DNA of 14,223 nucleotides from a virus. The position numbers and the translations under genes are program-made. How positions within the stretch are numbered: position 1 is the first letter of the stretch; every line of letters starts with the position of its first letter. The DNA is taken from UHGV virus genome UHGV-0138819; one strand, 5' to 3'. Below are positions 2,928 to 13,681 of the stretch, in pieces. The notes beneath the pieces were generated by a model. It did no database searches. It was not told the origin of the DNA and saw nothing but the letters and a program-made list of their open reading frames with translations.

Positions 2928-3692
2928 ATGGAGGCTGTTTTGAAAAAGATTCTTGCATTACCTCTTATGTTCTTTTCCTTCTCGTCCTTCTCTGAAGGCG
3001 TTTCGTCTACAGATGTACAACCATACCCTGAGTACCTGGCGGCCTATGTAAAAACGTTGATTGCTGCTGGATGTGAAGAAACATTGAAAGGCGGTTCTGA
3101 GGACGTATTGATCAAACGGGCAACGGAGGGAATGAAGAAGGGCACGACGGGTTACGATAATGTACACAATGCTATCGTGTTGGGGGCTGGTTTCGGTAAT
3201 GGACTGAAGGAAAAAGGAAAACTTATCACAAAAGAAAAAATCGCGATTGATAGTTGTGGTGGTGCAGCGGCCTATACCATGATGCAAAAAGAATTTATAA
3301 AAACGGTCGTTGCTAGTATGACTAATCCGGAACAATCGCAGGTTGCCGATAGTAAACCCAAAGTGCCAGCTTCTGATGATGCAATTTACCGTACAAAAGC
3401 ACTAGCTCTGGCTGAACTTTATAAAGCTAACGAGGTTGCAGCCGATGACAAAATTGGTGGTCGTAAGGTGGAAGTAACCGGAACTGTACAGGACATAACA
3501 AAAAATTTCACGGATGATGTAGTTCTTAAACTTGAAAGCGGTAATCGCTTCATGCCAGTCAGTCTGAGTATGTCTGATTCAGAAAAGGCGAAAGCGTCGA
3601 AATTGGAAAAGGGCCAGAAGATCACCGTGACTTGCGAAAAGATGCAGTTTTTCATCGGTGCACCGTCTGGCGGAAACTGCACCTTTAACTAA
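2928..3692 (+). CDS. Hypothetical secreted protein (~255 aa) with signal peptide and a possible OB-fold-like C-terminal domain
   Basis: Long ORF ending TAA 3690-3692. N-terminus MEAVLKKILALPLMFFSFSSFSEG looks like a signal peptide. Start ambiguous: ATG 2886, 2898, 2928, or TTG 2940 preceded by GGAGG at 2930-2934. The OB-fold resemblance is my guess. Confidence 0.6.
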   Translation: MEAVLKKILALPLMFFSFSSFSEGVSSTDVQPYPEYLAAYVKTLIAAGCEETLKGGSEDVLIKRATEGMKKGTTGYDNVHNAIVLGAGFGNGLKEKGKLITKEKIAIDSCGGAAAYTMMQKEFIKTVVASMTNPEQSQVADSKPKVPASDDAIYRTKALALAELYKANEVAADDKIGGRKVEVTGTVQDITKNFTDDVVLKLESGNRFMPVSLSMSDSEKAKASKLEKGQKITVTCEKMQFFIGAPSGGNCTFN

Positions 3693-3706
3693 TCTGTCAT
3701 ACGGTC

Positions 3707-3727
3707 TGCCGGGTAAAATTCCCGGCA
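3707..3727 (+). other. Hairpin just downstream of the cargo CDS (7-bp stem TGCCGGG/CCCGGCA, 7-nt loop), no U-tract
   Basis: Inverted repeat seen directly. Not followed by a T-run, so terminator function is uncertain. Confidence 0.3.
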
Positions 3728-4986
3728 ACTCATCTACCCCACCTCATGGATGTCCCTGCTATTTGACGATCCAGCTTACATGCTCTTGCTGAAAATATCT
3801 TACGGCTCTCTGGGCCAGGTGCCTGACGTGACAGACGATCCCTCAATAATTTCTTATCTTCTTGCTGAAATATCGCAGAGCCGACAGGCCCAGTAACGTA
3901 TTTCACCACTTCATCCCGTAGAGCATCACAGCAGGGAAAACTTGCCGCAATAGGGCATTCTACTGTTCGTTTTCTGGTCTATTTAACATAATGGTTCTTA
4001 TAAGTACTTGACTGGAATGGTCAGGTATTACTTTTCGGAACGTTGACGCGAAGCTGGGTACACAACAGCGATTTCACCAACAGAAGGAAAGCATTCAGGA
4101 GGATTCGAGGTGAGTTCTCTTGTTCAAGGATTTTGGATGAGTTTGCCTGGTCACCACACAATTTCAGGTTTCAGACCTTTGAGGCTGCCAGTGTGTCAAA
4201 CGCCATAAAAGCACTTTTTTCTGTTTACCAGCAGACACAAAGCCACTACACCGACGTTACCACAACGGGCTGAAGGTCTGCCATCACCTGGTGATATTCA
4301 CGAGCCTGACCGCCACTGTTTCGTACCATTTCCCAAAACAATGTAAACAGCCAACCCACCAATCCCTTCTACGCTCCACCAGAAGCGCTACAGTGCGTTA
4401 TCCCCCCAGATGTAAACTGACGTACCGATAATCCACGACATCCCACAGCGCGATACAGGAACCACCAGAGGACATCTGTTTTAGTTTTAATGTGTCTTTT
4501 TTATTTTTTGTAAAAAGATGGTTCAGAAAGTGGGTTGTGTTTAGCACCCATTCAATTGGCGGATTCGCCTAGGCCGCGCCATTACTGGCTTCGCTGCATG
4601 CACCACACCATAACGCCCATAGGTACAAACTTGTGATTTGTACGTTTAGTGACCACTTTAGCATGATTAACTACGGATTATAGGCTATTTGAGGTGTATT
4701 TAATCTACTTTGTTCGCAGGATAGCCAATGATAAAGATCATCCACCAAATTTTCACAGAAAACTAGTATAGGGTTGCCAATCTTCAGCCAGCGCGGAGAA
4801 TGGTCGGTATTTTCAGATGAAAGCGGGGGAGGGAGATGATCAATTCTCGGAGCGGATCAGGTGCCTGGACCGCCTCAGGTGTTGCCGTCGATTGTGCCAT
4901 TGAAGCATGACGCGGACATATCAAACCAGAAGTTTTCATCGGTACGTTGGTCGCTTGGATGACTTGGAAAATTCTCACCCGGTGAT

Positions 4987-5075
4987 ACCTGCACGATTTT
5001 CGTGTACCCACCCCCTCGATTTTCGAGCACCTACCTGCACGATTTTCGAGTAGGGGGTAGTCGATTTTCGAGCAC
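4987..5075. repeat. Iteron-like array: four CGATTTTCG-centred repeats at 22-23 bp spacing, followed by an AT-rich tract; candidate replication origin or protein-binding array
   Basis: CGATTTTCG at 4994, 5017, 5040 and 5062. ACCTGCACGATTTTCG is exact at 4987-5002 and 5033-5048. CGATTTTCGAGCAC is exact at 5017-5030 and 5062-5075. AATAATAATAAATAACAAT follows at 5076-5094. Confidence 0.55.
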
Positions 5076-5649
5076 AATAATAATAAATAACAATCTCCAT
5101 AAAAGAACTGATAAGAAAAGTACCTCCAGGTCGAGAGCACGGAATGACGGTTGGTCATTCTGTTAGTTTTAATAGTGATGCTTCTGCATCGCTCCGCTCT
5201 GCAATGGCTGGTCAGCCACTTCAGATATGTTTGTGGTAAGAAGCTCACCTTTGCTGACGTGAAACAGCCGCGCCATCTCGTGACCTTCTAACCCTCGTTA
5301 ACACATCGCTACGCTCTGTGACTCGGGTAACCCGACAGGCTACGCCAGAGAGCTACGCTCTCACTCTGTGTGGAAGCTGCGAACTTGTTCGCCATATGTG
5401 GATCGGAGCACGGCGGAGAGGACTGCTTTGCATCTGTCCGGTTCACTCCGGGGCGGCGCGGGTTGTCTAACTGACTTCCTCAGCGCCTCTCTACGGCGTT
5501 TAAATGGTGTGGGTAACACGATGGTACTGCTATAACGACGAGTCCCCGCAGAACGCGTCACAGAACGATCTAGCACTATTGACAAAGATTTTTTAAACTT
5601 GTAATGTTATGGTGATTATTATGCATTATAAAATGCTACATGATAATGA

Positions 5650-5678
5650 TTGCTATTTACAAACAAATCTGATACAAT
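5650..5678 (+). promoter_or_regulatory. Candidate sigma70 promoter for the 5824-10406 operon (TTGCTA, 17-bp spacer, TACAAT)
   Basis: -35 TTGCTA at 5650-5655 and -10 TACAAT at 5673-5678 in an AT-rich region about 145 bp upstream of the first operon ATG. Confidence 0.4.
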
Positions 5679-5823
5679 AGATTTTAGTAGGGTAATGATT
5701 TACCTACGAATCCTCGAATAATTCTGCCGTCATCACGACATTCCTTGTCAACCTCACGGCAATACAAAATGGGTTACAAATAGAACCTCCGCGAATAATT
5801 CTTTTAACAGAACGGAGAACCCA

Positions 5824-6270
5824 ATGAATAAACCAAAATCCCAACGTCTCGACCTGACCACTATGACAGGCGAGCAGATCGCTGATCTCATCCTGAACGG
5901 CAAATACACCAAATCAGCTTTGTGGGCCTTCATTAGTAGAAACGGCGGGGCAGACGCTGTACATGCTCGACTTCCTCAGATCGCCGTCTGCCTGCAAATC
6001 CTGAAGCAGGCGCGGAAGAAAGCGAAGCAGGCACGAGTGGTTAAGACGGTGCTGAAGCCTCTGAGCAATAAATATGCTGAGGGTAATTCCTTAACGCAAA
6101 TCCTGAATCCTGTGTTACAGGGCTACCGCGAGCTATATAGAGAAAAACTGAATCTGGACCTGACACCAGAACAGGTGATCTTGCTCTTGATCGCCACTGA
6201 TGGTGTGGAACGTCTGGAATCCTACGGTTACACCTGTGCGGGTGACTTCCCGACCGCAACCGCAGTCTAA
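5824..6270 (+). CDS. Hypothetical protein (148 aa), first gene of the rightward operon
   Basis: GGAGA 8 nt upstream of the ATG. No family recognised. Confidence 0.6.
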   Translation: MNKPKSQRLDLTTMTGEQIADLILNGKYTKSALWAFISRNGGADAVHARLPQIAVCLQILKQARKKAKQARVVKTVLKPLSNKYAEGNSLTQILNPVLQGYRELYREKLNLDLTPEQVILLLIATDGVERLESYGYTCAGDFPTATAV

Positions 6271-6357: not shown

Positions 6358-6561
6358 ATGAACATCAAATTTCAACAGCACGTTTATCAGGCTCTACTAG
6401 CTGAGGCCAAAAGGCAGGACAAGCCCCTGGCACGGCTCTGTAATGAAATCTTGGAGACTGCCGCGAACATTTTCGACAACACACCAGACATCAAACCAGC
6501 ATTAGCCAGCAAGGCGACACTTTACGGAGAACAGAATGAGCAAACAGAACCGGGACAGTAA
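6358..6561 (+). CDS. Small putative ribbon-helix-helix (Arc/MetJ/CopG-like) DNA-binding protein (67 aa)
   Basis: AGGAGGA upstream of the ATG. N-terminal strand-like MNIKFQQ followed by two predicted helices (QALLAEAKRQ, PLARLCNEILETA). RHH assignment is by pattern only. Confidence 0.55.
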   Translation: MNIKFQQHVYQALLAEAKRQDKPLARLCNEILETAANIFDNTPDIKPALASKATLYGEQNEQTEPGQ

Positions 6562-7282
6562 GGATTTTGTAAAACTTGAATACAGCATTCTCGACCTTAC
6601 CGAGTACAACGGCCTGACCATTAATGGCAACATGAAAATTTTGCTATCTCTGGTTTACAGCTATGACAAAACAGGCAGAACTTATTACGAGTCTGTTGGC
6701 ATGATTGGTAAACGTTGCGGCTGCAAGCCCGAAGCCGTTCGTAATTTCAGGAACAAGCTTCGTGAAGCGGGAATGATCACTTTTGAGGAAGAGCAGGGGA
6801 GAACACACAAAATTTCTCCGGTCGAACTCGATCCATCGTTGATGGTTTTTCTTGACGATCATAATTCCACGCAGGTGAGTAATAGAAAAGTGGAAACCGA
6901 GGAGAGCGGTAAGAATGAGCAGAAACGTGATGTGGAATCTTTCGTGGTGGAACCTGCCGCGCCTGTTGCTGGAAAACCAGACGGCCTACCTGTTGTGGAT
7001 ATTCCTGTCGATGCTGATGTACCTGCCAATGATGATGCGGTGAACGCTTCTGATAGGTATACCGATGAACAATTAGGCACCAAGCTGAGGCGATGGCGCA
7101 ATTGGGGACTGGATGAAGAAGCAAAAGCGTTTTGTCTCTCTCATGGTATCAGCAGCGATGAGGACAGCATGAATCTGTTTATTCAAAATTATCATGTACC
7201 CGCACCGGAGTCAGTAGAACAACAGGTTAACGCCCCAGCAGATGAGCTGCCGCTTGATTATGATGACTCGATCCCTTTCTGA
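6536..7282 (+). CDS. Hypothetical protein (248 aa) with a putative winged-helix DNA-binding segment and acidic C-terminal region; candidate replication initiator or regulator
   Basis: GGAGA 5 nt upstream of the ATG. Overlaps the previous ORF by 26 nt. Segment YESVGMIGKRCGCKPEAVRNFRNKLREAGMI resembles wH/HTH domains. C-terminal half is D/E-rich. Confidence 0.55.
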   Translation: MSKQNRDSKDFVKLEYSILDLTEYNGLTINGNMKILLSLVYSYDKTGRTYYESVGMIGKRCGCKPEAVRNFRNKLREAGMITFEEEQGRTHKISPVELDPSLMVFLDDHNSTQVSNRKVETEESGKNEQKRDVESFVVEPAAPVAGKPDGLPVVDIPVDADVPANDDAVNASDRYTDEQLGTKLRRWRNWGLDEEAKAFCLSHGISSDEDSMNLFIQNYHVPAPESVEQQVNAPADELPLDYDDSIPF

Positions 7283-7296
7283 TACTGGAGGAATAA

Positions 7297-7818
7297 TTGT
7301 GTGATGTTGCCAACAGCCTGACGGCTGAAACCCTTACGGTGCGAAGCACTTTACCAGAGGTAAACAAATCCGGTGCTGACGCCCCTGATTTGTCCCGTTT
7401 TTACAAGGCCCGCTCTCGTGATACCTCGTTGATCGAGACTGCTAAAAAAATGCTCGTTCACGGTTACACCCCAGGCAAAACGGCGCTGCTCCTACGCTTG
7501 CCGTATGACCTGGTAAAAGGCCTTTACGATAACTCGTGGAATCCTCGCTGTCGCAAGATAAGTAATACCAGTCAGTACGCTACTAAGCGAATGGCCCGAA
7601 TGTACTACGAATCCGGCGCAATGCTGGCAAAAATCTGTGCTGACCTTCAACTGCCTCTATTCACTGTGGTAACGCTGCTCAAGCGTGAAGGAATCACTGA
7701 AAAAGAAATGGCATCTCGAATGCCTGTTAGTGATGATCCGTTGTTCATTGAGTACCGGAAGACTATTTCACGCAAGCAGGCAGCGCCCCAACGCCGATCA
7801 CCACGACTGCATTATTAA
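7297..7818 (+). CDS. Hypothetical protein (173 aa), possible tandem HTH-like segments
   Basis: TTG start 5 nt after GGAGG (7287-7291). No family recognised. Confidence 0.5.
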   Translation: MCDVANSLTAETLTVRSTLPEVNKSGADAPDLSRFYKARSRDTSLIETAKKMLVHGYTPGKTALLLRLPYDLVKGLYDNSWNPRCRKISNTSQYATKRMARMYYESGAMLAKICADLQLPLFTVVTLLKREGITEKEMASRMPVSDDPLFIEYRKTISRKQAAPQRRSPRLHY

Positions 7819-8265: not shown

Positions 8266-10406
8266 TGTCTGGCACAAATAAGATTGTTACCAGCACCGTT
8301 AATGAAATCTCGTGGATCACAGACGATGCCTCATATCAAAAAGCCAAAAAGAAGATTATCTCGCTTAAGGCTGCTCATGAGAAACCAGCTAAAGCGCTTG
8401 AGAAGGCCCAGAAGCGGACCGTCCAGAGTGAAGGCAAAGCAGCACTAGCCGCAGCGAAAGCCCAGACAGCGAAGCTACGCCAGGCTGAACAATTGTCAAA
8501 ACAGCAACAGAAACAAGCTCAGATACAAGCCAAAATGGAACGGGATGCAGTCTCCCACGCTAATAAAATGACCTCATTACAGGCGCGTCAGTTATCCCAG
8601 CAGGAACAGGCCGCACGGCAGAATGCCAGACTAGCAGCGATATCTGACAAGGTGAGACAGGCGAGTCGCTCCCGTGCAATGACCTACAATCCCAACATGC
8701 CTGGAGTTCACTCCGATCCATCTCTGGTGGCACGTCAAAATGCAGCGATGAACCGTGGTCACGGCGCTGTTGCTGCTGACATCGCAGCCACCAAAAAGGC
8801 GATGGCCTTGGAGGAGAAGCGTCAGCGTGAGAAAGAGGCAGGCCTTAAGCGCGAGGTGACTTATTACAACAGTTTGCGCCGTAGCGCTCTGACTCTGGCA
8901 AACGTGAACGGCGCTGACGTTGCAACCCGGTACAAAGCCATCAGTGCAGCAAAAGAGGCACTTAAAGCCCAGAAAGAAGAGCGCTATACGGTTGAAGAGA
9001 CCCGCTTCGAAATGGCTCGTATCACCACCGAATTACGCAAGCAGGCTCGTCTGCAACAGCGTATGACCCGTGAGCAGAAAGCCGCAGGTGTTCGTGCTGG
9101 TCGTGTACGCACAGAAAGCCGTGGTGGTAGAGCTGGTCTTGCAGCTGCTGGTGTTATTGGTGGTGCGTCGTTAGTGGGTAGTATGGGCGTTTCTCGTGTC
9201 GGTCAGACCCTCCAGGGAAGCCTTGAGCGCTCTCGCGATGTGAAAAAACTCCAGCAGTACGGGATCAGCAACCTTGAGTTCGCTGCACTTCAGGATCTCT
9301 CGATGAGCCGTGTTGGTTACTCACTGAGTGCTGACAAGCTGGCTGACCTCAACAAGGACACAACCGAAAAGGCCGGGGAATTGTTAAACACCGGCTCTTT
9401 CAAACGTAACAAGAAAACTGGACAGGTGAATTTCAGCGGCGGTGGCGAGTTCGCAGATATCATCAACAATGTGCTGACCTCCACCAACGGTAACCAGAAG
9501 GTAGCACAGAAGGTGATCGGAGAACTGCAAAAGCTGGATTTTCCGACCTTCATCACTTACCTGAAACAGTTGCAGAAAACTTTCAAATGGACGGACAACC
9601 AGACCCGGCACCTGGCTGAGGCTGTGAATGATGGTTCGGTCTTCCTCGAAGTGTTCAATGATGAGGGGCAGGGACTTATCCAGCGTATGCATCAACTCTC
9701 TTCTGAAGGATGGACCCTATCTGATGCGCAGCAAGCCAACCTCGATAAACTGGCGGCGTTAGGTGCTGAGTACAACCGAGTGCAAACCAGCCTTGCAGAT
9801 CATTTCTCAGCCTCGTTTGTTGAAGGCCTGGGGCAGTACGCTGCCAATACTGAAACTCTACGTCAGAAGATGACTGGACTGATCCCAATTTCCGATGCCC
9901 TCGGCGTTGCCCTTGGTGAGCTAACCACCAACATTCTCTCCTTCTCTGGTCGAGTCGGTGAAGAACTTAAGAAAGGCGCGACATTGCCGGATGCGGTGTA
10001 TACGAGCGTGGTAGATGAATCTGCAAACGGTGCTGCCGATTGGATTAAGGAAAAGACAGGCTTTGATCCACGTAGCATCGGTCAGACGCTTAAGCAGATT
10101 TACCCGTGGCTGGATAGTTCAGCACCGAGCAATATTGGCTCAGGCACGGCGTATAACGATCCAGCGCTAGCGTTGAATGTTCCTAGCCTGAACTATCTGA
10201 CACCCCAGCAACCGACGTTTACGGTTCCGACAATTGACAGCATGACGCTGCGACAGCCGATTCCTGTCAGTGTTACCGGGCAAGCGAACATTAATCAGCA
10301 GATGGATGTGTTTGTCCATGACGATAAGATCGCAGGGCTGGTTGATACCAAGATAAGGGAGAACAACCACGCGCAGAATAACCTCATCCTTGGGATTGCA
10401 GACTAA
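8265..10406 (+). CDS. Large hypothetical protein (~713 aa): Ala/Lys/Gln-rich coiled-coil N-terminal ~300 aa, Gly-rich hydrophobic segment, unrecognised C-terminal region
   Basis: Uninterrupted 2.1 kb ORF with start overlapping the upstream stop (TGATG). Hydrophobic GLAAAGVIGGASLVGSMGV mid-protein. No Walker A, no relaxase HxH motif, no primase zinc-finger pattern seen. Confidence 0.7.
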   Translation: MSGTNKIVTSTVNEISWITDDASYQKAKKKIISLKAAHEKPAKALEKAQKRTVQSEGKAALAAAKAQTAKLRQAEQLSKQQQKQAQIQAKMERDAVSHANKMTSLQARQLSQQEQAARQNARLAAISDKVRQASRSRAMTYNPNMPGVHSDPSLVARQNAAMNRGHGAVAADIAATKKAMALEEKRQREKEAGLKREVTYYNSLRRSALTLANVNGADVATRYKAISAAKEALKAQKEERYTVEETRFEMARITTELRKQARLQQRMTREQKAAGVRAGRVRTESRGGRAGLAAAGVIGGASLVGSMGVSRVGQTLQGSLERSRDVKKLQQYGISNLEFAALQDLSMSRVGYSLSADKLADLNKDTTEKAGELLNTGSFKRNKKTGQVNFSGGGEFADIINNVLTSTNGNQKVAQKVIGELQKLDFPTFITYLKQLQKTFKWTDNQTRHLAEAVNDGSVFLEVFNDEGQGLIQRMHQLSSEGWTLSDAQQANLDKLAALGAEYNRVQTSLADHFSASFVEGLGQYAANTETLRQKMTGLIPISDALGVALGELTTNILSFSGRVGEELKKGATLPDAVYTSVVDESANGAADWIKEKTGFDPRSIGQTLKQIYPWLDSSAPSNIGSGTAYNDPALALNVPSLNYLTPQQPTFTVPTIDSMTLRQPIPVSVTGQANINQQMDVFVHDDKIAGLVDTKIRENNHAQNNLILGIAD

Positions 10407-10440
10407 AATCATCGTTCCGTCGAAAATGGCGCAGCAAATT

Positions 10441-10460
10441 GGCCCACACGAGAGAGGGCC
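10441..10460 (+). terminator. Weak terminator-like hairpin after the 714-aa gene
   Basis: GGCCC (10441-10445) pairs with GGGCC (10456-10460) around a 10-nt loop, followed by a T-rich stretch (GTTATTGTTTTTGTTGTTG). Confidence 0.25.
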
Positions 10461-10490
10461 GTTGAATTCGCCATGTTATTGTTTTTGTTG

Positions 10491-10520
10491 TTGCAAATGA
10501 TAATCATTCGTGTTAAAATA
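10491..10520 (+). promoter_or_regulatory. Fur-box-like palindrome (AATGAT-A-ATCATT) overlapping a candidate sigma70 promoter (TTGCAA, 18-bp spacer, TAAAAT)
   Basis: Perfect 6-1-6 inverted repeat at 10495-10507 inside 10493-10511, about 14/19 match to the Fur consensus GATAATGATAATCATTATC as I recall it. -35 TTGCAA 10491-10496, -10 TAAAAT 10515-10520. Confidence 0.35.
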
Positions 10521-10926
10521 ATATACAAGGTGAATTACAACAGCCAAATGTTTTCCCTTCTCCTTAGGAATCAAAGTGCGCTTTTCCCAGAGCGCCTTTT
10601 CTCATACAGCCAATATTCGCACCCTCTCACGGTAAGGTTAGGCCATTGCCGCTGGCTGTATCAGAAAAGATTTTCTCCGACCTTGGATCGGGGATTTGCC
10701 AAAGCCTTTCATCCTCGGAAGGCCGTCTTGCCAGACGAAAACTGGCATTGAGTGCGGCAGCGAAGATATGAGGTCTCCCGCTGCTGTGCTCCCTCATTCC
10801 TGAAGCGTGACCCGCCGATCATGCTTTCCAAATCTCTCCATCAGAAAATACCATCGTGAAGCTATTAGCAACGCATGTTGCTAACCCGTAAACGGGTGAA
10901 TTTCATCATCTCCGATGATCTACCAA

Positions 10927-10962
10927 CCGGGGCAGGCGTTTTCCTGCCTCCGGCTCTTTTTC
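10927..10962 (+). terminator. Terminator-like hairpin (CCGGGGCAGG / CCTGCC-T-CCGG) followed by CTCTTTTTCT
   Basis: About 10-bp GC-rich stem with one bulge, T-rich tract a few nt downstream. Confidence 0.4.
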
Positions 10963-10984
10963 TGTTGGGAATACAAATAAAAGA

Positions 10985-11010
10985 ATGCCGTCCGATGGAC
11001 GGTATTTTTT
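10985..11010. terminator. Rho-independent terminator, probably bidirectional
   Basis: Stem ATGCCGTCC / GGACGGTAT with loop GAT, then TTTTT on the plus strand. The plus-strand AAATAAAAG just upstream gives a U-rich tract on the minus strand. Confidence 0.6.
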
Positions 11011-11049
11011 CAACACAACCCGGCATATTCGCCGGATTATAAAAATTGC

Positions 11050-11412
11050 ATGGAGATACAACAAAATATGGCATTCGAACATGAAAGCAAAACCCCACAG
11101 GATGTATTGGTTTATACCGATAGCCCGATCTTTCATAAGCGCACCGTGATCTTTGATCTGGCTGCTGATGTGACTTGTGGTGATGTGATTAACCCGACCA
11201 CTGGCGCGGCATACGTTGCAGCCGATGCTGATAACTGTGCTGTAGCTCTGCAAAATCAAATCGCTGGTGATGCCCGTAGCCTGGTCATTTCAGACCGTGG
11301 CTGTGTGTTCAATCCATCTGGTCTGGTTGTAGCGGCTGCTGCAAAAGATGCTGCTTACGCTGCCCTTGTTAAGCAAGGCAACCGCATTGCTGACGCAAAC
11401 ACTGCAATCTAA
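11050..11412 (+). CDS. Putative phage head decoration-like protein (120 aa, or 114 aa from ATG 11068)
   Basis: Small Ala/Gly/Val/Asp-rich protein immediately upstream of a ~340-aa capsid-like ORF, the lambda D-E arrangement. Product call is inference from size, composition and gene order. GGAGA at 11052-11056 fits the 11068 start. Confidence 0.5.
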   Translation: MEIQQNMAFEHESKTPQDVLVYTDSPIFHKRTVIFDLAADVTCGDVINPTTGAAYVAADADNCAVALQNQIAGDARSLVISDRGCVFNPSGLVVAAAAKDAAYAALVKQGNRIADANTAI

Positions 11413-11430: not shown

Positions 11431-12447
11431 ATGAAATTAAGTGATTTTACTAACCTTTCCGGTCAGTTTGTGAAGCCAAGCGGCGAGGGGTTCCTTCTGT
11501 CCAGCCTGGGGATCTTTACCAGCCGTCCAAGTGATACGCAAATCATCGCGCTCGACACACTGGAAGATGTGCAGCGTGAAGTGACCAAATCTGTTGCCCG
11601 TTATGGTTCTGAAATGTCCGGTCTAAACTTCCCTAAAGCGGCTAACGTGACTGTTCAGGCTCCACTGCATGTCTACAGCTCAACCATCACCAGCCAGGAT
11701 TGGCAGGGGAAACGTCAGCCGGGAACAAATCGCCAGATGACCGCTGAAGATGTAGTTGCTAATCATACCCTGAAGCACTACCTGCAAACCCGCCGTGATG
11801 TTGAATATGCCATGGCGCAGAGCCTGCTTCACAATACTGTAGAGGCGACACACCTTCGTGAAGGTCCTGATCTGAACTGGCAAACCTTCTGGGGTATTAA
11901 CCAGCCGTCTGCTGTGGTGAAAACTGGCATCAGTGCCAACGTTATTACTGAGATGCAGAACGCTGTCACGCTGCTGAAGAAAAATCTGGGTGGCTGGTCT
12001 TCCAGCATCAAGCAGGTTTATCTGCTAGCGAGTCCGAGTCTTTTCACCGCCATTCAAGGCAACCCAACCGCATATCAGGCGGCTCTGTTTGGTGCTACGT
12101 CCCGTGACATCATTTTCCCTGACACTTTGGGCGCATATGATCGATACAACATCGGGCGCGTAACTGTAGTTCAGGTTGACGATCCGCTATACGGCATTGC
12201 AGATGGTGAAGGCTACATGCTGGCGACGTTCTCCAATGTTGTTGAAGGCGACCTTTCACCTTATATGACTTACCAGACTCCGGCGAGCCGTCATGCTGAC
12301 GTTGCTAATGGTCCGGTTTATCCGTCTTACCATTACGTTCTGCGTGATAAGTTCATGAATTATGAGGTGGTCAGCGAGCTATCACAAATTCAGATCCCAA
12401 TGCGTCCAGACTTCGTTTTGAAAATTACGATGGATGACGCGGCGTAA
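11431..12447 (+). CDS. Putative major capsid protein (338 aa), possibly lambda gpE-like
   Basis: AGGAG upstream of the ATG. Length and position after the small decoration-like ORF fit a major capsid protein. Family assignment not verified. Confidence 0.6.
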   Translation: MKLSDFTNLSGQFVKPSGEGFLLSSLGIFTSRPSDTQIIALDTLEDVQREVTKSVARYGSEMSGLNFPKAANVTVQAPLHVYSSTITSQDWQGKRQPGTNRQMTAEDVVANHTLKHYLQTRRDVEYAMAQSLLHNTVEATHLREGPDLNWQTFWGINQPSAVVKTGISANVITEMQNAVTLLKKNLGGWSSSIKQVYLLASPSLFTAIQGNPTAYQAALFGATSRDIIFPDTLGAYDRYNIGRVTVVQVDDPLYGIADGEGYMLATFSNVVEGDLSPYMTYQTPASRHADVANGPVYPSYHYVLRDKFMNYEVVSELSQIQIPMRPDFVLKITMDDAA

Positions 12448-12509: not shown

Positions 12510-12722
12510 ATGAAATTAGCTTTGATCGGTACTGGCAACATGCCGCTGATGCAGTGGATTCTAGATGGCAAGGGCGATGATGCGATTATCAACATGTCAG
12601 CGTTAGCACGCAGGCTTGAGTGTAGTCGTTCCAGCCTACTTGACCGCATCCATACGCATGGATTCGACAGCGCTATTAGGTACTACCTCAACGAACAGCG
12701 ACAACGAAAACTGAAAACATGA
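12510..12722 (+). CDS. Small HTH-like protein (70 aa); candidate DNA-binding, excisionase or packaging accessory
   Basis: Strong SD (AAGGAAAGGAGA) 6 nt before ATG 12510. The ORF track extends it to 12459, but the SD supports 12510. INMSALARRLECSRSSLLDRI resembles a helix-turn-helix. Confidence 0.55.
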   Translation: MKLALIGTGNMPLMQWILDGKGDDAIINMSALARRLECSRSSLLDRIHTHGFDSAIRYYLNEQRQRKLKT

Positions 12723-13435: not shown

Positions 13436-13556
13436 CCTGTCACACATAGACCAAAAGGGCCGCTTTTACCGTTTACAAGACTTCCCGCTGGCATTACTAT
13501 CCTGATCAGGGATTAATGAGGAGCATTAATCGCAAGCTTTTGATTTTATAGTACAT

Positions 13557-13627
13557 GACTCGGGGTGCCCTTCTTTGTGAAGGCTGAGAAATACCCGTAT
13601 TACCTGATCTGGATAATGCCAGCGTAG
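13557..13627 (+). repeat. attR: element-derived riboswitch-like 5' arm plus shared core; right copy of the 71-bp direct repeat
   Basis: Differs from 188-258 at three positions (TT for GC at 13575-13576, T for C at 13601). Canonical host sequence resumes after 13627 (GGAAGTCACGG...). Confidence 0.8.
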
Positions 13628-13681
13628 GGAAGTCACGGACCACCAGGTCATTGCTTCTTCACGTTATGGCAGGAGCAAACT
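13557..13681 (+). promoter_or_regulatory. TPP (thi-box) riboswitch in the thiM 5' leader, hybrid of element-derived 5' aptamer half and host 3' half plus expression platform
   Basis: GGGGTGCCCTTCT..GTGAAGGCTGAGAAATACCCGTAT.ACCTGATCTGGATAATGCCAGCGTAGGGAAGTCACGGACCACCAGGTCATTGCTTCTTCACGTTATGGCAGGAGCAAACTATG matches the E. coli thiM riboswitch as I recall it, apart from three substitutions in the 5' half. Confidence 0.85.

Follow-up and report, generated by a model that had tools for sequence, protein, structure and literature searches.

The UHGV virus genome UHGV-0138819, analyzed here as a stretch of 14,223 nucleotides (nt; hereafter the window), contains a hairpin-rich gap between the gene of a protein of 714 amino acids (aa) and two capsid-like genes, which encode a gpD-like head-decoration protein and a gpE-like major capsid protein. 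In our reading, to which we assign a probability of roughly 0.45, the gap is the promoter-proximal leader of the capsid operon and encodes an undescribed, conserved and pseudoknotted RNA of ~0.5 kb, at which transcription would terminate until antitermination sets in. We favor this reading because the promoter is conserved, the + strand fold covaries, the position is fixed, the terminators are kept and the capsid genes lack a recognizable promoter. The window represents Escherichia coli chromosome and is 100% identical to strain TC24 over the query.

The original prediction described a structured, ORF-free region that ends in tandem terminators upstream of the capsid-like genes, and this observation is confirmed. 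The hairpins at 10578-10595, 10865-10884, 10927-10953 and 10985-11010 are all present and stable on folding, positions 10407-11049 of the window hold no conserved open reading frame (ORF), and two intrinsic terminators on the + strand (10927-10963 and 10980-11010) precede the gpD-like and major capsid genes. A terminator scan found four terminator-like sites in 10300-11150, where 0.8 are expected. The description was nevertheless incomplete, as a conserved promoter at 10491-10519 is also present, and the hairpins are not all separate units, since several belong to larger long-range helices. The only sizeable reading frame, ORF 10473/10548-10751, was rejected as a real coding sequence because relatives at ~80-88% nucleotide identity carry indels of 1, 5, 15, and 54 nt inside it, frameshifts included, and do not conserve it; the longest ATG-initiated ORF in the leaders of relatives comprises 26-35 aa, and tblastn matches are scattered over frames. 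The E. coli TC24 record, which is identical, has no PGAP annotation from the 713-aa gene to the gpD-like gene.

Transcription of the leader is predicted to start at a sigma-70 promoter with an extended -10 element (Table 1), in which a promoter scan found 9 of 12 consensus positions matched and the TG present. The predicted transcription start lies at ~10526-10527. Related islands were gathered via the capsid protein and stem from E. coli, Klebsiella, Enterobacter, Pantoea, Kluyvera, Pseudocitrobacter, Dryocola, Silvania, and metagenomes. In 39 of 46 related loci, TTGNNN-N14-TGNTAAAAT is matched exactly once, 466-715 nt 5' of the gpD-like ATG. The hexamers are fixed across related loci while the spacer sequence is free to change, which is how a real promoter is expected to evolve. 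From position 10519 to the capsid genes, the same scan detected no further sigma-70-like promoter on the + strand. The spacer contains a perfect 13-bp palindrome, AATGATAATCATT (10496-10508), which is unique in the window (0.02 expected). It equals the center of the E. coli Fur-box consensus GATAATGATAATCATTATC, which is matched at 14 of 19 positions overall. The palindrome may be an operator for Fur or another dimeric repressor. The spacer variant AATGGTTACCATT retains the dyad, but in about half of the related promoters the spacer is not palindromic.

The transcript downstream of this promoter is predicted to be highly structured. On the + strand, 10520-11015 folds with -180.4 kcal/mol and a z-score of -8.0 compared to 100 dinucleotide shuffles, whereas the minus strand reaches a z-score of -3.9. 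Among 34 distinct homologous leaders, the + strand z-scores range from -3.2 to -10.6, and every minus strand is weaker than its own + strand. Furthermore, nucleotide conservation of the leader exceeds that of the neighboring capsid proteins.

The 110-nt core with its three hairpins a, b, and c was analyzed with a covariance model. Model R1 was built from five close sequences, and E-values of the covariance models are rough owing to a shortened calibration. In 44 of 45 loci, R1 has a single full-length match, which is always on the strand of the capsid genes; these loci include some with a capsid protein of only 23-33% identity to that of the window. In the loci checked, the core sits between the large gene and the gpD-like gene. 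An unguided alignment of the core with MAFFT and RNAalifold gave a poor consensus owing to indels, and the covariance-model alignment was used instead. In its 38 distinct rows, 93.7% of the cells are standard pairs versus 69.8% after shuffling, both sides have changed in a compensatory manner in 23 of 25 pairs, and the covariation score is 0.617 versus 0.206, a value reached by none of 500 shuffles. When the partners are slid by 1-3 columns, pairing falls to 30-53%. The alignment is fitted to the model and hence favors structure, but the effect is so large, and the distinct pair types are so many, that this bias does not suffice as an explanation. G-U cells outnumber A-C cells by 76 to 3, indicating that the constraint acts on the + strand RNA and not on DNA.

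Within the core, the loop of hairpin b is complementary to a segment 9 nt downstream. This pairing is best described as a putative H-type pseudoknot, an alternative helix being less likely. The partner sets GCCA:UGGC, GCCG:CGGC, GUUG:CAAC, GUCG:CGGC, GUCA:UGAC, and GCUA:UGGC occur, and all four pairs form with the own partner in 31 of 38 sequences as opposed to 13 of 126 combinations with mismatched partners. RNAalifold recovered the same pseudoknot pairs independently. The loop of hairpin a, (C/A)UCCUC or CUCUCCU, is retained through 18 versions of its stem, and further loops and junctions expose UCUCC, CCUC, or CUCUC. The 3' tail of the core is CCUCAUUCCU. A long-range helix would close the core by pairing GGAUUUG (10692-10698) with CAAAUCU (10829-10835); variants of this helix, read by hand, are GGAUUAG:CUAAUCU, GGGUUU:AAACCC, GGAUUU:AAAUCC, and GGGAUG:CAUCUC.

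The description of P1, the 3' domain and the long-range helices is based on inspection and minimum free energy (MFE) folds. The conserved bases of the initially transcribed region form the P1 stem, whose loop bears the conserved motif UACWACWGCCAAWUGU and which is followed by the pyrimidine tract UCUCCUU (10560-10566). By eye, the P1 stem becomes AGCGA/UCGCU in locus L005 and AAGGGAAA/UUUCCCU in L014 with an unchanged loop motif. In relatives, H2 is swapped for GCCUG...CGGGC, which includes a U-G pair, or for AGGCUCUG...CAGAGCCU. For H3, covariance model R2 matched 22 loci with 24-107 bits on the capsid strand, and reverse matches did not exceed 32 bits; 94.4% of the cells are paired, double changes occur in 5 of 25 pairs, and the G-U:A-C ratio is 31:3. 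The 3' domain is predicted to be closed by helix I2, in which 10838-10848 pairs with 10958-10968 (CAUCAGAAAA opposite UUUUCUGUUG). More generally, the leader is a mosaic, as lineages differ mainly by insertion, deletion, or swap of whole hairpins. The twin-hairpin module is located after H3 in RM10740, L012, and L023, the latter of which has two copies, and these differing places suggest that it behaves as a movable RNA module.

Both terminators are predicted from sequence and folding. Across the leaders, one or two such terminators would end the transcript 60-140 nt 5' of the gpD-like and major capsid genes. The U-tract of T1 doubles as the 3' side of the domain-closing helix, and T1 is found in most window-type leaders. 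In most lineages, a hairpin of terminator type, complete with U-tract, is found 60-200 nt 5' of the ATG of the capsid operon, in at least four unrelated sequence versions. Position is kept while sequence is not, and terminator function appears to be conserved. In some relatives, extra hairpin modules stand between the terminator or post-terminator hairpin and the ribosome-binding site (RBS), which suggests that transcription sometimes continues there. Apart from their own partners, the arms of T1 and T2 have only 6-7-nt complements in the leader, even with wobble allowed. Hence, no longer helix competes with either terminator stem, and a classical attenuator or a terminator/antiterminator riboswitch platform was rejected; the original prediction had considered an attenuator-like leader.

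The leader may also contact the mRNA downstream. The hub stretch AAAUCUCUCCAUCAGAAAA has three possible partners, namely the core-closing helix, the 3'-domain-closing helix, and the RBS region of the gpD-like gene. Its part UCUCCAUCAG (10835-10844) is complementary to this RBS region, with UCUCCAU-CAG opposite CUG-N-AUGGAGA. The best leader-RBS duplex involves the hub motif in 11 of 34 distinct leaders, that is, in 11 of the 20 with this capsid-type RBS. Variant pairs are UCUCCGUCAG:CUGAUGGAGA and UCUCC-C-UCAG:CUGA-C-GGAGA, and leaders of the other capsid type place UUGACUCC opposite GGGAGUUAA. Accordingly, the 3' part of the leader goes with the capsid type and is complementary to the matching RBS (UCUCCAU(-)CAG:CUG(U)AUGGAGA). 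On these sequence comparisons, pairing between leader and RBS is suggestive. CTCC occurs seven times in 10501-11000 compared to about once per 500 nt elsewhere in the window; GGAG is absent from 10501-11000. In most homologues, CTCC is ~2-fold above shuffles. The corresponding CUCC motifs are complementary to the GGAG-type RBSs of the island genes.

Table 1. Coordinates of the predicted leader RNA, its parts, and genes of the island in the window.
Feature	Position	Strand	Details
Integrase	320/347-1702		Island gene
Small proteins of no known function and Sie-like protein	After integrase		Island genes
DnaD/O-like helix-turn-helix (HTH) initiator protein	6536-7282		Island gene
714-aa protein	8262/8265-10406		Just 5' of leader; weak PHROG tail tape-measure matches, E = 9e-14 for residues 5-138
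Sigma-70 promoter, extended -10	10491-10519	+	-35 TTGCAA 10491-10496, 17-bp spacer, TGt TAAAAT 10511-10519
Predicted structured leader RNA, ~480 nt	10527-11010	+	Putative start to U-tract of second terminator; both ends predicted from sequence
P1 5' hairpin	10528-10558	+	AAGG-U-GAA ... UUC-CCU; MFE folds
H2 hairpin	10578-10595	+	GCGCTTT-TCCC-AGAGCGC, -9.8 kcal/mol, then CTTTTCTC (RNA CUUUUCUC); weak terminator-like
H3 long hairpin	10596-10669	+	17-nt arms and inner hairpin; CCUCUCA conserved in internal loop
Conserved 110-nt core, hairpins a, b, c	10692-10801	+	Covariance model R1
Core hairpin a	10704-10723	+	Loop AUCCUC; in most relatives CUCCUC
Core hairpin b	10724-10737	+	Loop takes part in putative pseudoknot
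Putative pseudoknot	10730-10746	+	Hairpin b loop GCCA (10730-10733) with UGGC (10743-10746)
Core hairpin c, 13-bp helix	Arms 10750-10762 and 10779-10791	+	Loop includes GGUCUCC
Hub motif C-AAAUCUCUCCAUCAG	10829-10844	+	Most conserved stretch of leader
Twin-hairpin module	10865-10896	+	TTAGCAAC-GCAT-GTTGCTAA (RNA UUAGCAAC-GCAU-GUUGCUAA) 10865-10884, then CCCG-UAAA-CGGG 10885-10896; together -15.7 kcal/mol
Small hairpin	10903-10918	+	Loop AUCUCC; weak alone, -4.2 kcal/mol; kept in window-type relatives
Terminator-like hairpin T1	10927-10963	+	CCGGGGCAGG-CGUUUU-CCUGCCUCCGG; hairpin 10927-10953, -18.9 kcal/mol, then CTCTTTTTCTG (RNA tract CUCUUUUUCUG)
Canonical intrinsic terminator T2	10980-11010	+	A-tract, GCCGUCC-GAU-GGACGGU (DNA stem GCCGTCC/GGACGGT), U6; -17.6 kcal/mol, z -5.3
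Post-terminator hairpin	11020-11035	+	CCGGC-AUAUUC-GCCGG; folding
RBS region of gpD-like gene	11046-11070	+	UUGCAUGGAGAUAC; Shine-Dalgarno (SD) sequence GGAGA 11052-11056, ATG 11068
gpD-like head-decoration protein	11068-11412	+	Pfam HDPD E = 6e-4, below Pfam cut-off
gpE-like major capsid protein	11431-12447	+	Pfam Phage_cap_E E = 3e-3, below Pfam cut-off; PHROG major head protein E = 2.5e-9; PGAP 'major capsid protein'
Two more small genes	After capsid gene		Island genes

Taken as the leader of the capsid operon, the region could work as follows. The conserved promoter would start a + strand transcript, which would fold into P1, H2, H3, the covarying pseudoknotted core closed by its long-range helix, and a further domain of several hairpins. 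As long as the island rests, RNA polymerase would halt at the terminators, leaving a stable ~480-nt RNA and silent capsid genes. Upon helper infection or island induction, processive antitermination would allow read-through into the capsid genes. The antitermination function might be helper-encoded, island-encoded, or recruited by the leader RNA itself, with the helper phage as the likely source. On read-through transcripts, the UCUCCAUCAG hub and other exposed CUCC motifs might pair with GGAG RBSs and thereby form a probable translational gate, and the spacer palindrome suggests an extra layer of repression at initiation. A precedent is the lambdoid late promoter PR', which is always active and terminated just downstream until Q acts, leaving a short RNA (PMC7547250). 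The two possibilities raised by the original prediction that a leader governs capsid expression or that the region encodes a small RNA both fit a promoter, a structured + strand RNA, and terminators ahead of the capsid genes.

Several points weigh against this reading. The 5' and 3' ends of the transcript, like read-through, are predictions. No antiterminator was recognized, as island proteins have no match to Q, N, or other antiterminators in Pfam, PHROG, or NCBIfam, and no phage record shares the promoter or leader in searches for near and distant nucleotide similarity. When 34 starts were aligned and inspected, the initially transcribed region showed no -10-like hexamer (A2, T6) at a fixed position. 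The RBS pairing has few independent variants, and GGAG/CUCC complementarity easily arises by chance. Moreover, a unit running from promoter to terminator is equally typical of a stand-alone non-coding RNA gene, the fold is far more elaborate than terminators require and is left unexplained by the model, and an activator-dependent promoter of the capsid genes would be invisible to a scan for the sigma-70 consensus.

The arrangement resembles the lambdoid PR'-qut-tR' region with its lambda 6S and StxS RNAs (PMC7547250) in that a sigma-70 promoter lies just before late genes and is followed by a nearby intrinsic terminator, so that a short, possibly regulatory RNA is made; here, promoter and terminators are recognized by sequence. 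In contrast to lambdoid late leaders, the RNA described here has ~480 nt and a covarying, multi-domain, pseudoknotted fold; no Q gene, Q-binding element, or pause signal was found, the region has no similarity to any of 50,697 phage records, and the island has no recognizable lysis, terminase, portal, or tail-structure genes. Lambda 6S RNA has 194 nt. A comparison of the island proteins with the Q families of Pfam, PHROGs, and NCBIfam revealed no Q gene beside the promoter, and a helper-encoded Q is possible. Q-binding elements vary among Q types, and recognition needs the cognate Q.

If the RNA were instead a stand-alone, trans-acting molecule of ~480 nt, its CUCC/UCCUC seeds would pair with GGAG RBSs of helper mRNAs, such as those of the helper capsid genes, or of island or host mRNAs, as in Staphylococcus aureus RNAIII, which has 514 nt, many hairpins, and C-rich loops that bind SD regions. 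We consider this unlikely, while several features speak for it. The RNA has its own conserved promoter and strong terminators, CTCC is enriched and GGAG missing in the leader with a similar ~2-fold CTCC excess in most homologues, and the hairpin a loop is constant over 18 stems, with UCUCC also present in the loops of hairpin c and of the hairpin at 10903-10918. Like RNAIII and C-rich anti-SD small RNAs, the leader has a size of ~0.5 kb, many hairpins, long-range helices, and SD-complementary pyrimidine loops kept over varying stems, a likeness of features and not of homology. A terminated late leader that acts as a small RNA is known from StxS of Stx phages (PMC7547250). Conversely, the lineage and sequence are unrelated to RNAIII, the motif is CUCC/UCCUC instead of UCCC and too short for target prediction, and the RNA is tied physically to the following operon. 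It was never found away from capsid genes, and capsid type and 3' part of the RNA vary together, which argues for a link in cis; hairpin modules also extend past the terminator. A further-reaching proposal would see a new class of large pseudoknotted RNA at the heart of a new family of capsid-encoding satellites, either as a helper-sensing device that turns on the island's private capsid genes by processive antitermination, without protein or with a helper factor, or as an anti-SD RNA with multiple seeds that silences translation of helper capsid genes so that the satellite capsid takes over assembly; we regard this, too, as doubtful.

Somewhat less probable still is that the core acts as an RNA-only processive antiterminator in the manner of HK022 put or Bacillus EAR. 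The core would then make polymerase terminator-resistant, the promoter would be the point of control, for instance through a repressor bound to the spacer palindrome, and T1 and T2 would insulate the capsid genes from upstream read-through. As in HK022 putL/putR and in EAR of Bacillus eps operons, a folded RNA lies between promoter and terminators without a dedicated protein factor being recognizable, and the conserved core is complex and pseudoknotted; EAR likewise contains a pseudoknot. The lack of a recognizable protein antiterminator in the island, the unique 13-bp dyad with its symmetry kept in the variant AATGGTTACCATT, and the lack of a competing antiterminator hairpin, as a processive mechanism predicts, are compatible with this alternative. 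However, the analogy is purely structural. The leader is several times larger than put or EAR and had no sequence or structure match in the Rfam scan, which covers EAR, a dyad is missing from about half of the promoter spacers, and the core is ~165 nt away from the start, sometimes behind variable modules.

It is improbable that the region is a passive insulator against upstream transcription, padded with stable hairpin modules that serve termination and RNA stability only. Several terminator-like hairpins and the mosaic architecture with whole-hairpin indels and one module that changes place would suit such a barrier, which would, however, need no conserved promoter. Invariant loops on covarying stems, a covarying pseudoknot, long-range helices, and a nucleotide conservation above that of the adjacent capsid proteins are likewise left unexplained, and the modules are not genome-wide repeats, as they occur in a single place per genome in 35 E. 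coli genomes. Finally, a DNA-level signal, that is, a packaging (cos/pac) site, the original prediction having listed a packaging signal, or an island replication origin, is highly improbable. In its favor are the conservation of a non-coding region and the need of any satellite for a packaging site, of which none was located in the island. Yet it is RNA base pairs that are conserved, strand-asymmetrically and with G-U allowed and A-C avoided, the lambda cosN sequence GGGCGGCGACCT is unmatched in the window with up to two mismatches in a search limited to the lambda type, and origin-like iterons lie elsewhere. What stands of the alternatives offered there (small RNA, attenuator-like leader, processing or packaging signal) is an RNA-level, terminator-ended + strand element between a conserved promoter and the capsid genes.

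Other identities were rejected as well. Against a minus-strand sponge of the CsrB/RsmZ type with GGA motifs, promoter, terminators, fold z-scores, and the G-U:A-C ratios of core and H3 all indicate the + strand, where the motif reads CUCC; the CsrB family gave no match. REP/BIME and ERIC repeats were dismissed because 35 of 5426 complete E. coli genomes match, in one place each. On inspection, GTGCGGCAGCG in hairpin c resembles the RfaH ops element GGCGGTAGCGTG, a resemblance that is lost in other lineages, and the boxA-like GGCUCUUUUU after T1 is not kept as GCUCUUU in relatives (GGUCUUUUU, GUGUUUUUU), its conserved part being the helix partner UUUUCUG. A switch between the P1 loop and the 5' arm of H3, both of which contain ACAGCCA, was discarded since H3 covaries internally and the P1 loop does not follow.

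The Rfam scan proposed at the outset yielded no family for the gap. Among the 4227 models of Rfam 15, including GOLLD, ROOL, OLE, HEARO, EAR, CsrB, C4, and riboswitches, the sole match in the window is a thiamine pyrophosphate (TPP) riboswitch at 13551-13647; at E-values up to 10, the best scores in 10380-11080 are 12-23 bits (E 0.06 to 8) compared to thresholds of 45-95. The leader shares with GOLLD, ROOL, OLE, HEARO, and raiA a large, covariation-supported non-coding fold on a mobile element and differs from them in its lack of an Rfam match, its fixed place before capsid genes, and its clear frame of promoter and terminator. The immunity leader of satellite P4 (CI RNA, seqA/B/C) is similar in that an E. 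coli satellite silences an operon by a structured leader and premature termination. In P4, the RNA controls the early/replication operon via a processed small RNA that pairs with leader repeats. Unlike P4 CI RNA, the RNA described here stands before capsid genes and showed no internal pairs of repeat and antirepeat; the island is unrelated to P4. A 17-mer scan of viral contigs gave 12 matching stretches, four of them from contigs of the island family and eight without island proteins or extended similarity, and a search for contig ends of transcript type yielded long genomic contigs only. By comparison with Rfam, phage records, and dispersed copies, the RNA is a new family, while its mode of action is probably that of a terminator-ended late leader and thus of a kind already known. 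Searches of the literature by topic, protein accession, and motif sequence found no description of the island or the RNA.

The leader lies in a ~13.4-kb island between rcnR and thiM with nearly all genes on the + strand. On either side, it is flanked by one copy of a 71-bp direct repeat with three mismatches (188-258 and 13557-13627), which corresponds to the 5' two-thirds of the aptamer of the thiM TPP riboswitch. Of the two copies, the right one is part of the complete riboswitch before thiM (73.6 bits in Rfam); the left copy is shortened, falls below the Rfam gathering score, and is called a riboswitch by PGAP. These riboswitch-derived repeats indicate that the island integrates inside the riboswitch and rebuilds it. 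Apart from the tape-measure-like matches of the 714-aa protein, no terminase, portal, protease, tail-structure, or lysis gene was recognizable with Pfam, PHROGs, NCBIfam, or PGAP. With an integrase, att repeats, its own replication functions, and capsid genes, but no recognizable terminase, portal, or tail-structure genes, the element resembles a phage satellite that has capsid genes of its own. Searches of Pfam, PHROGs, and NCBIfam revealed no markers of P4-like satellites (alpha/sid/psu), PICI (alpA/pri-rep), cf-PICI (terminase, portal, protease), PLE, or PICMI, and the island does not fit any satellite family described so far.

At least three capsid types, with about 95%, 33%, and 23-27% identity, stand behind the same leader RNA in related islands. 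Among the 50,697 phage records, tblastn gave no match to the major capsid protein at E ≤ 1e-5, and together with the diversity of capsid types this suggests that the capsid lineages are private to the island family. In public assemblies, 2039 blocks list the exact gpD-like protein. The 714-aa protein combines a long, charged coiled-coil N-terminus with a Gly/Ala-rich hydrophobic segment and has no sequence match in Pfam, NCBIfam, or the PDB; RefSeq labels one of its homologues 'chemotaxis protein,' probably a coiled-coil artefact. Two basic proteins, of 70 aa (12510-12722, after the capsid gene) and 173 aa (7297-7818, 29 K+R), appear by eye to contain HTH-like stretches and match no family. 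They could be DNA- or RNA-binding factors for packaging or for the leader.

A second, 2.1-kb stretch (3692-5824) has no annotated or conserved-looking gene and is also ORF-poor at the same place in L003 and L004. It contains four ~23-bp direct repeats (iterons; 4986-5075) with the palindromic core CGATTTTCG 5' of the DnaD/lambda O-like gene, which are probably the replication origin of the island; the remaining ~2 kb have no Rfam match. In the distant, AT-rich locus L016 (IMG/VR UViG_2541048008_000005; capsid 29% identical), an ORF-free stretch of 585 nt (4159-4742) follows the large protein. It has a z-score of -4.3, a + strand terminator, no R1 match, and two extra genes before the decoration-like gene, and it may be an analogous, non-homologous leader. 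Two islands are damaged. In L028 (2337-5488), ~2.8 kb separate the RNA core from an N-terminally truncated gpD-like gene, and an insertion is suspected; L004 (9001-9653; E. coli GPT21-003_1) ends inside the leader RNA, with the capsid genes missing and ygeQ and an IS3 element adjoining.

Satellites hijack their helpers mostly via proteins, with P4 CI RNA as the classic RNA-based exception. If the reading as a terminated capsid-operon leader is true, a conserved RNA with a fold on the scale of riboswitches at the entry to satellite capsid genes would represent a control point of a new kind in the conflict between satellite and helper. The RNA would join the short list of large bacterial RNAs with covariation-supported structure, in an island family that is apparently undescribed yet very common. 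With a defined promoter, a 110-nt pseudoknotted core, invariant loop motifs, and two terminators, it is readily testable.

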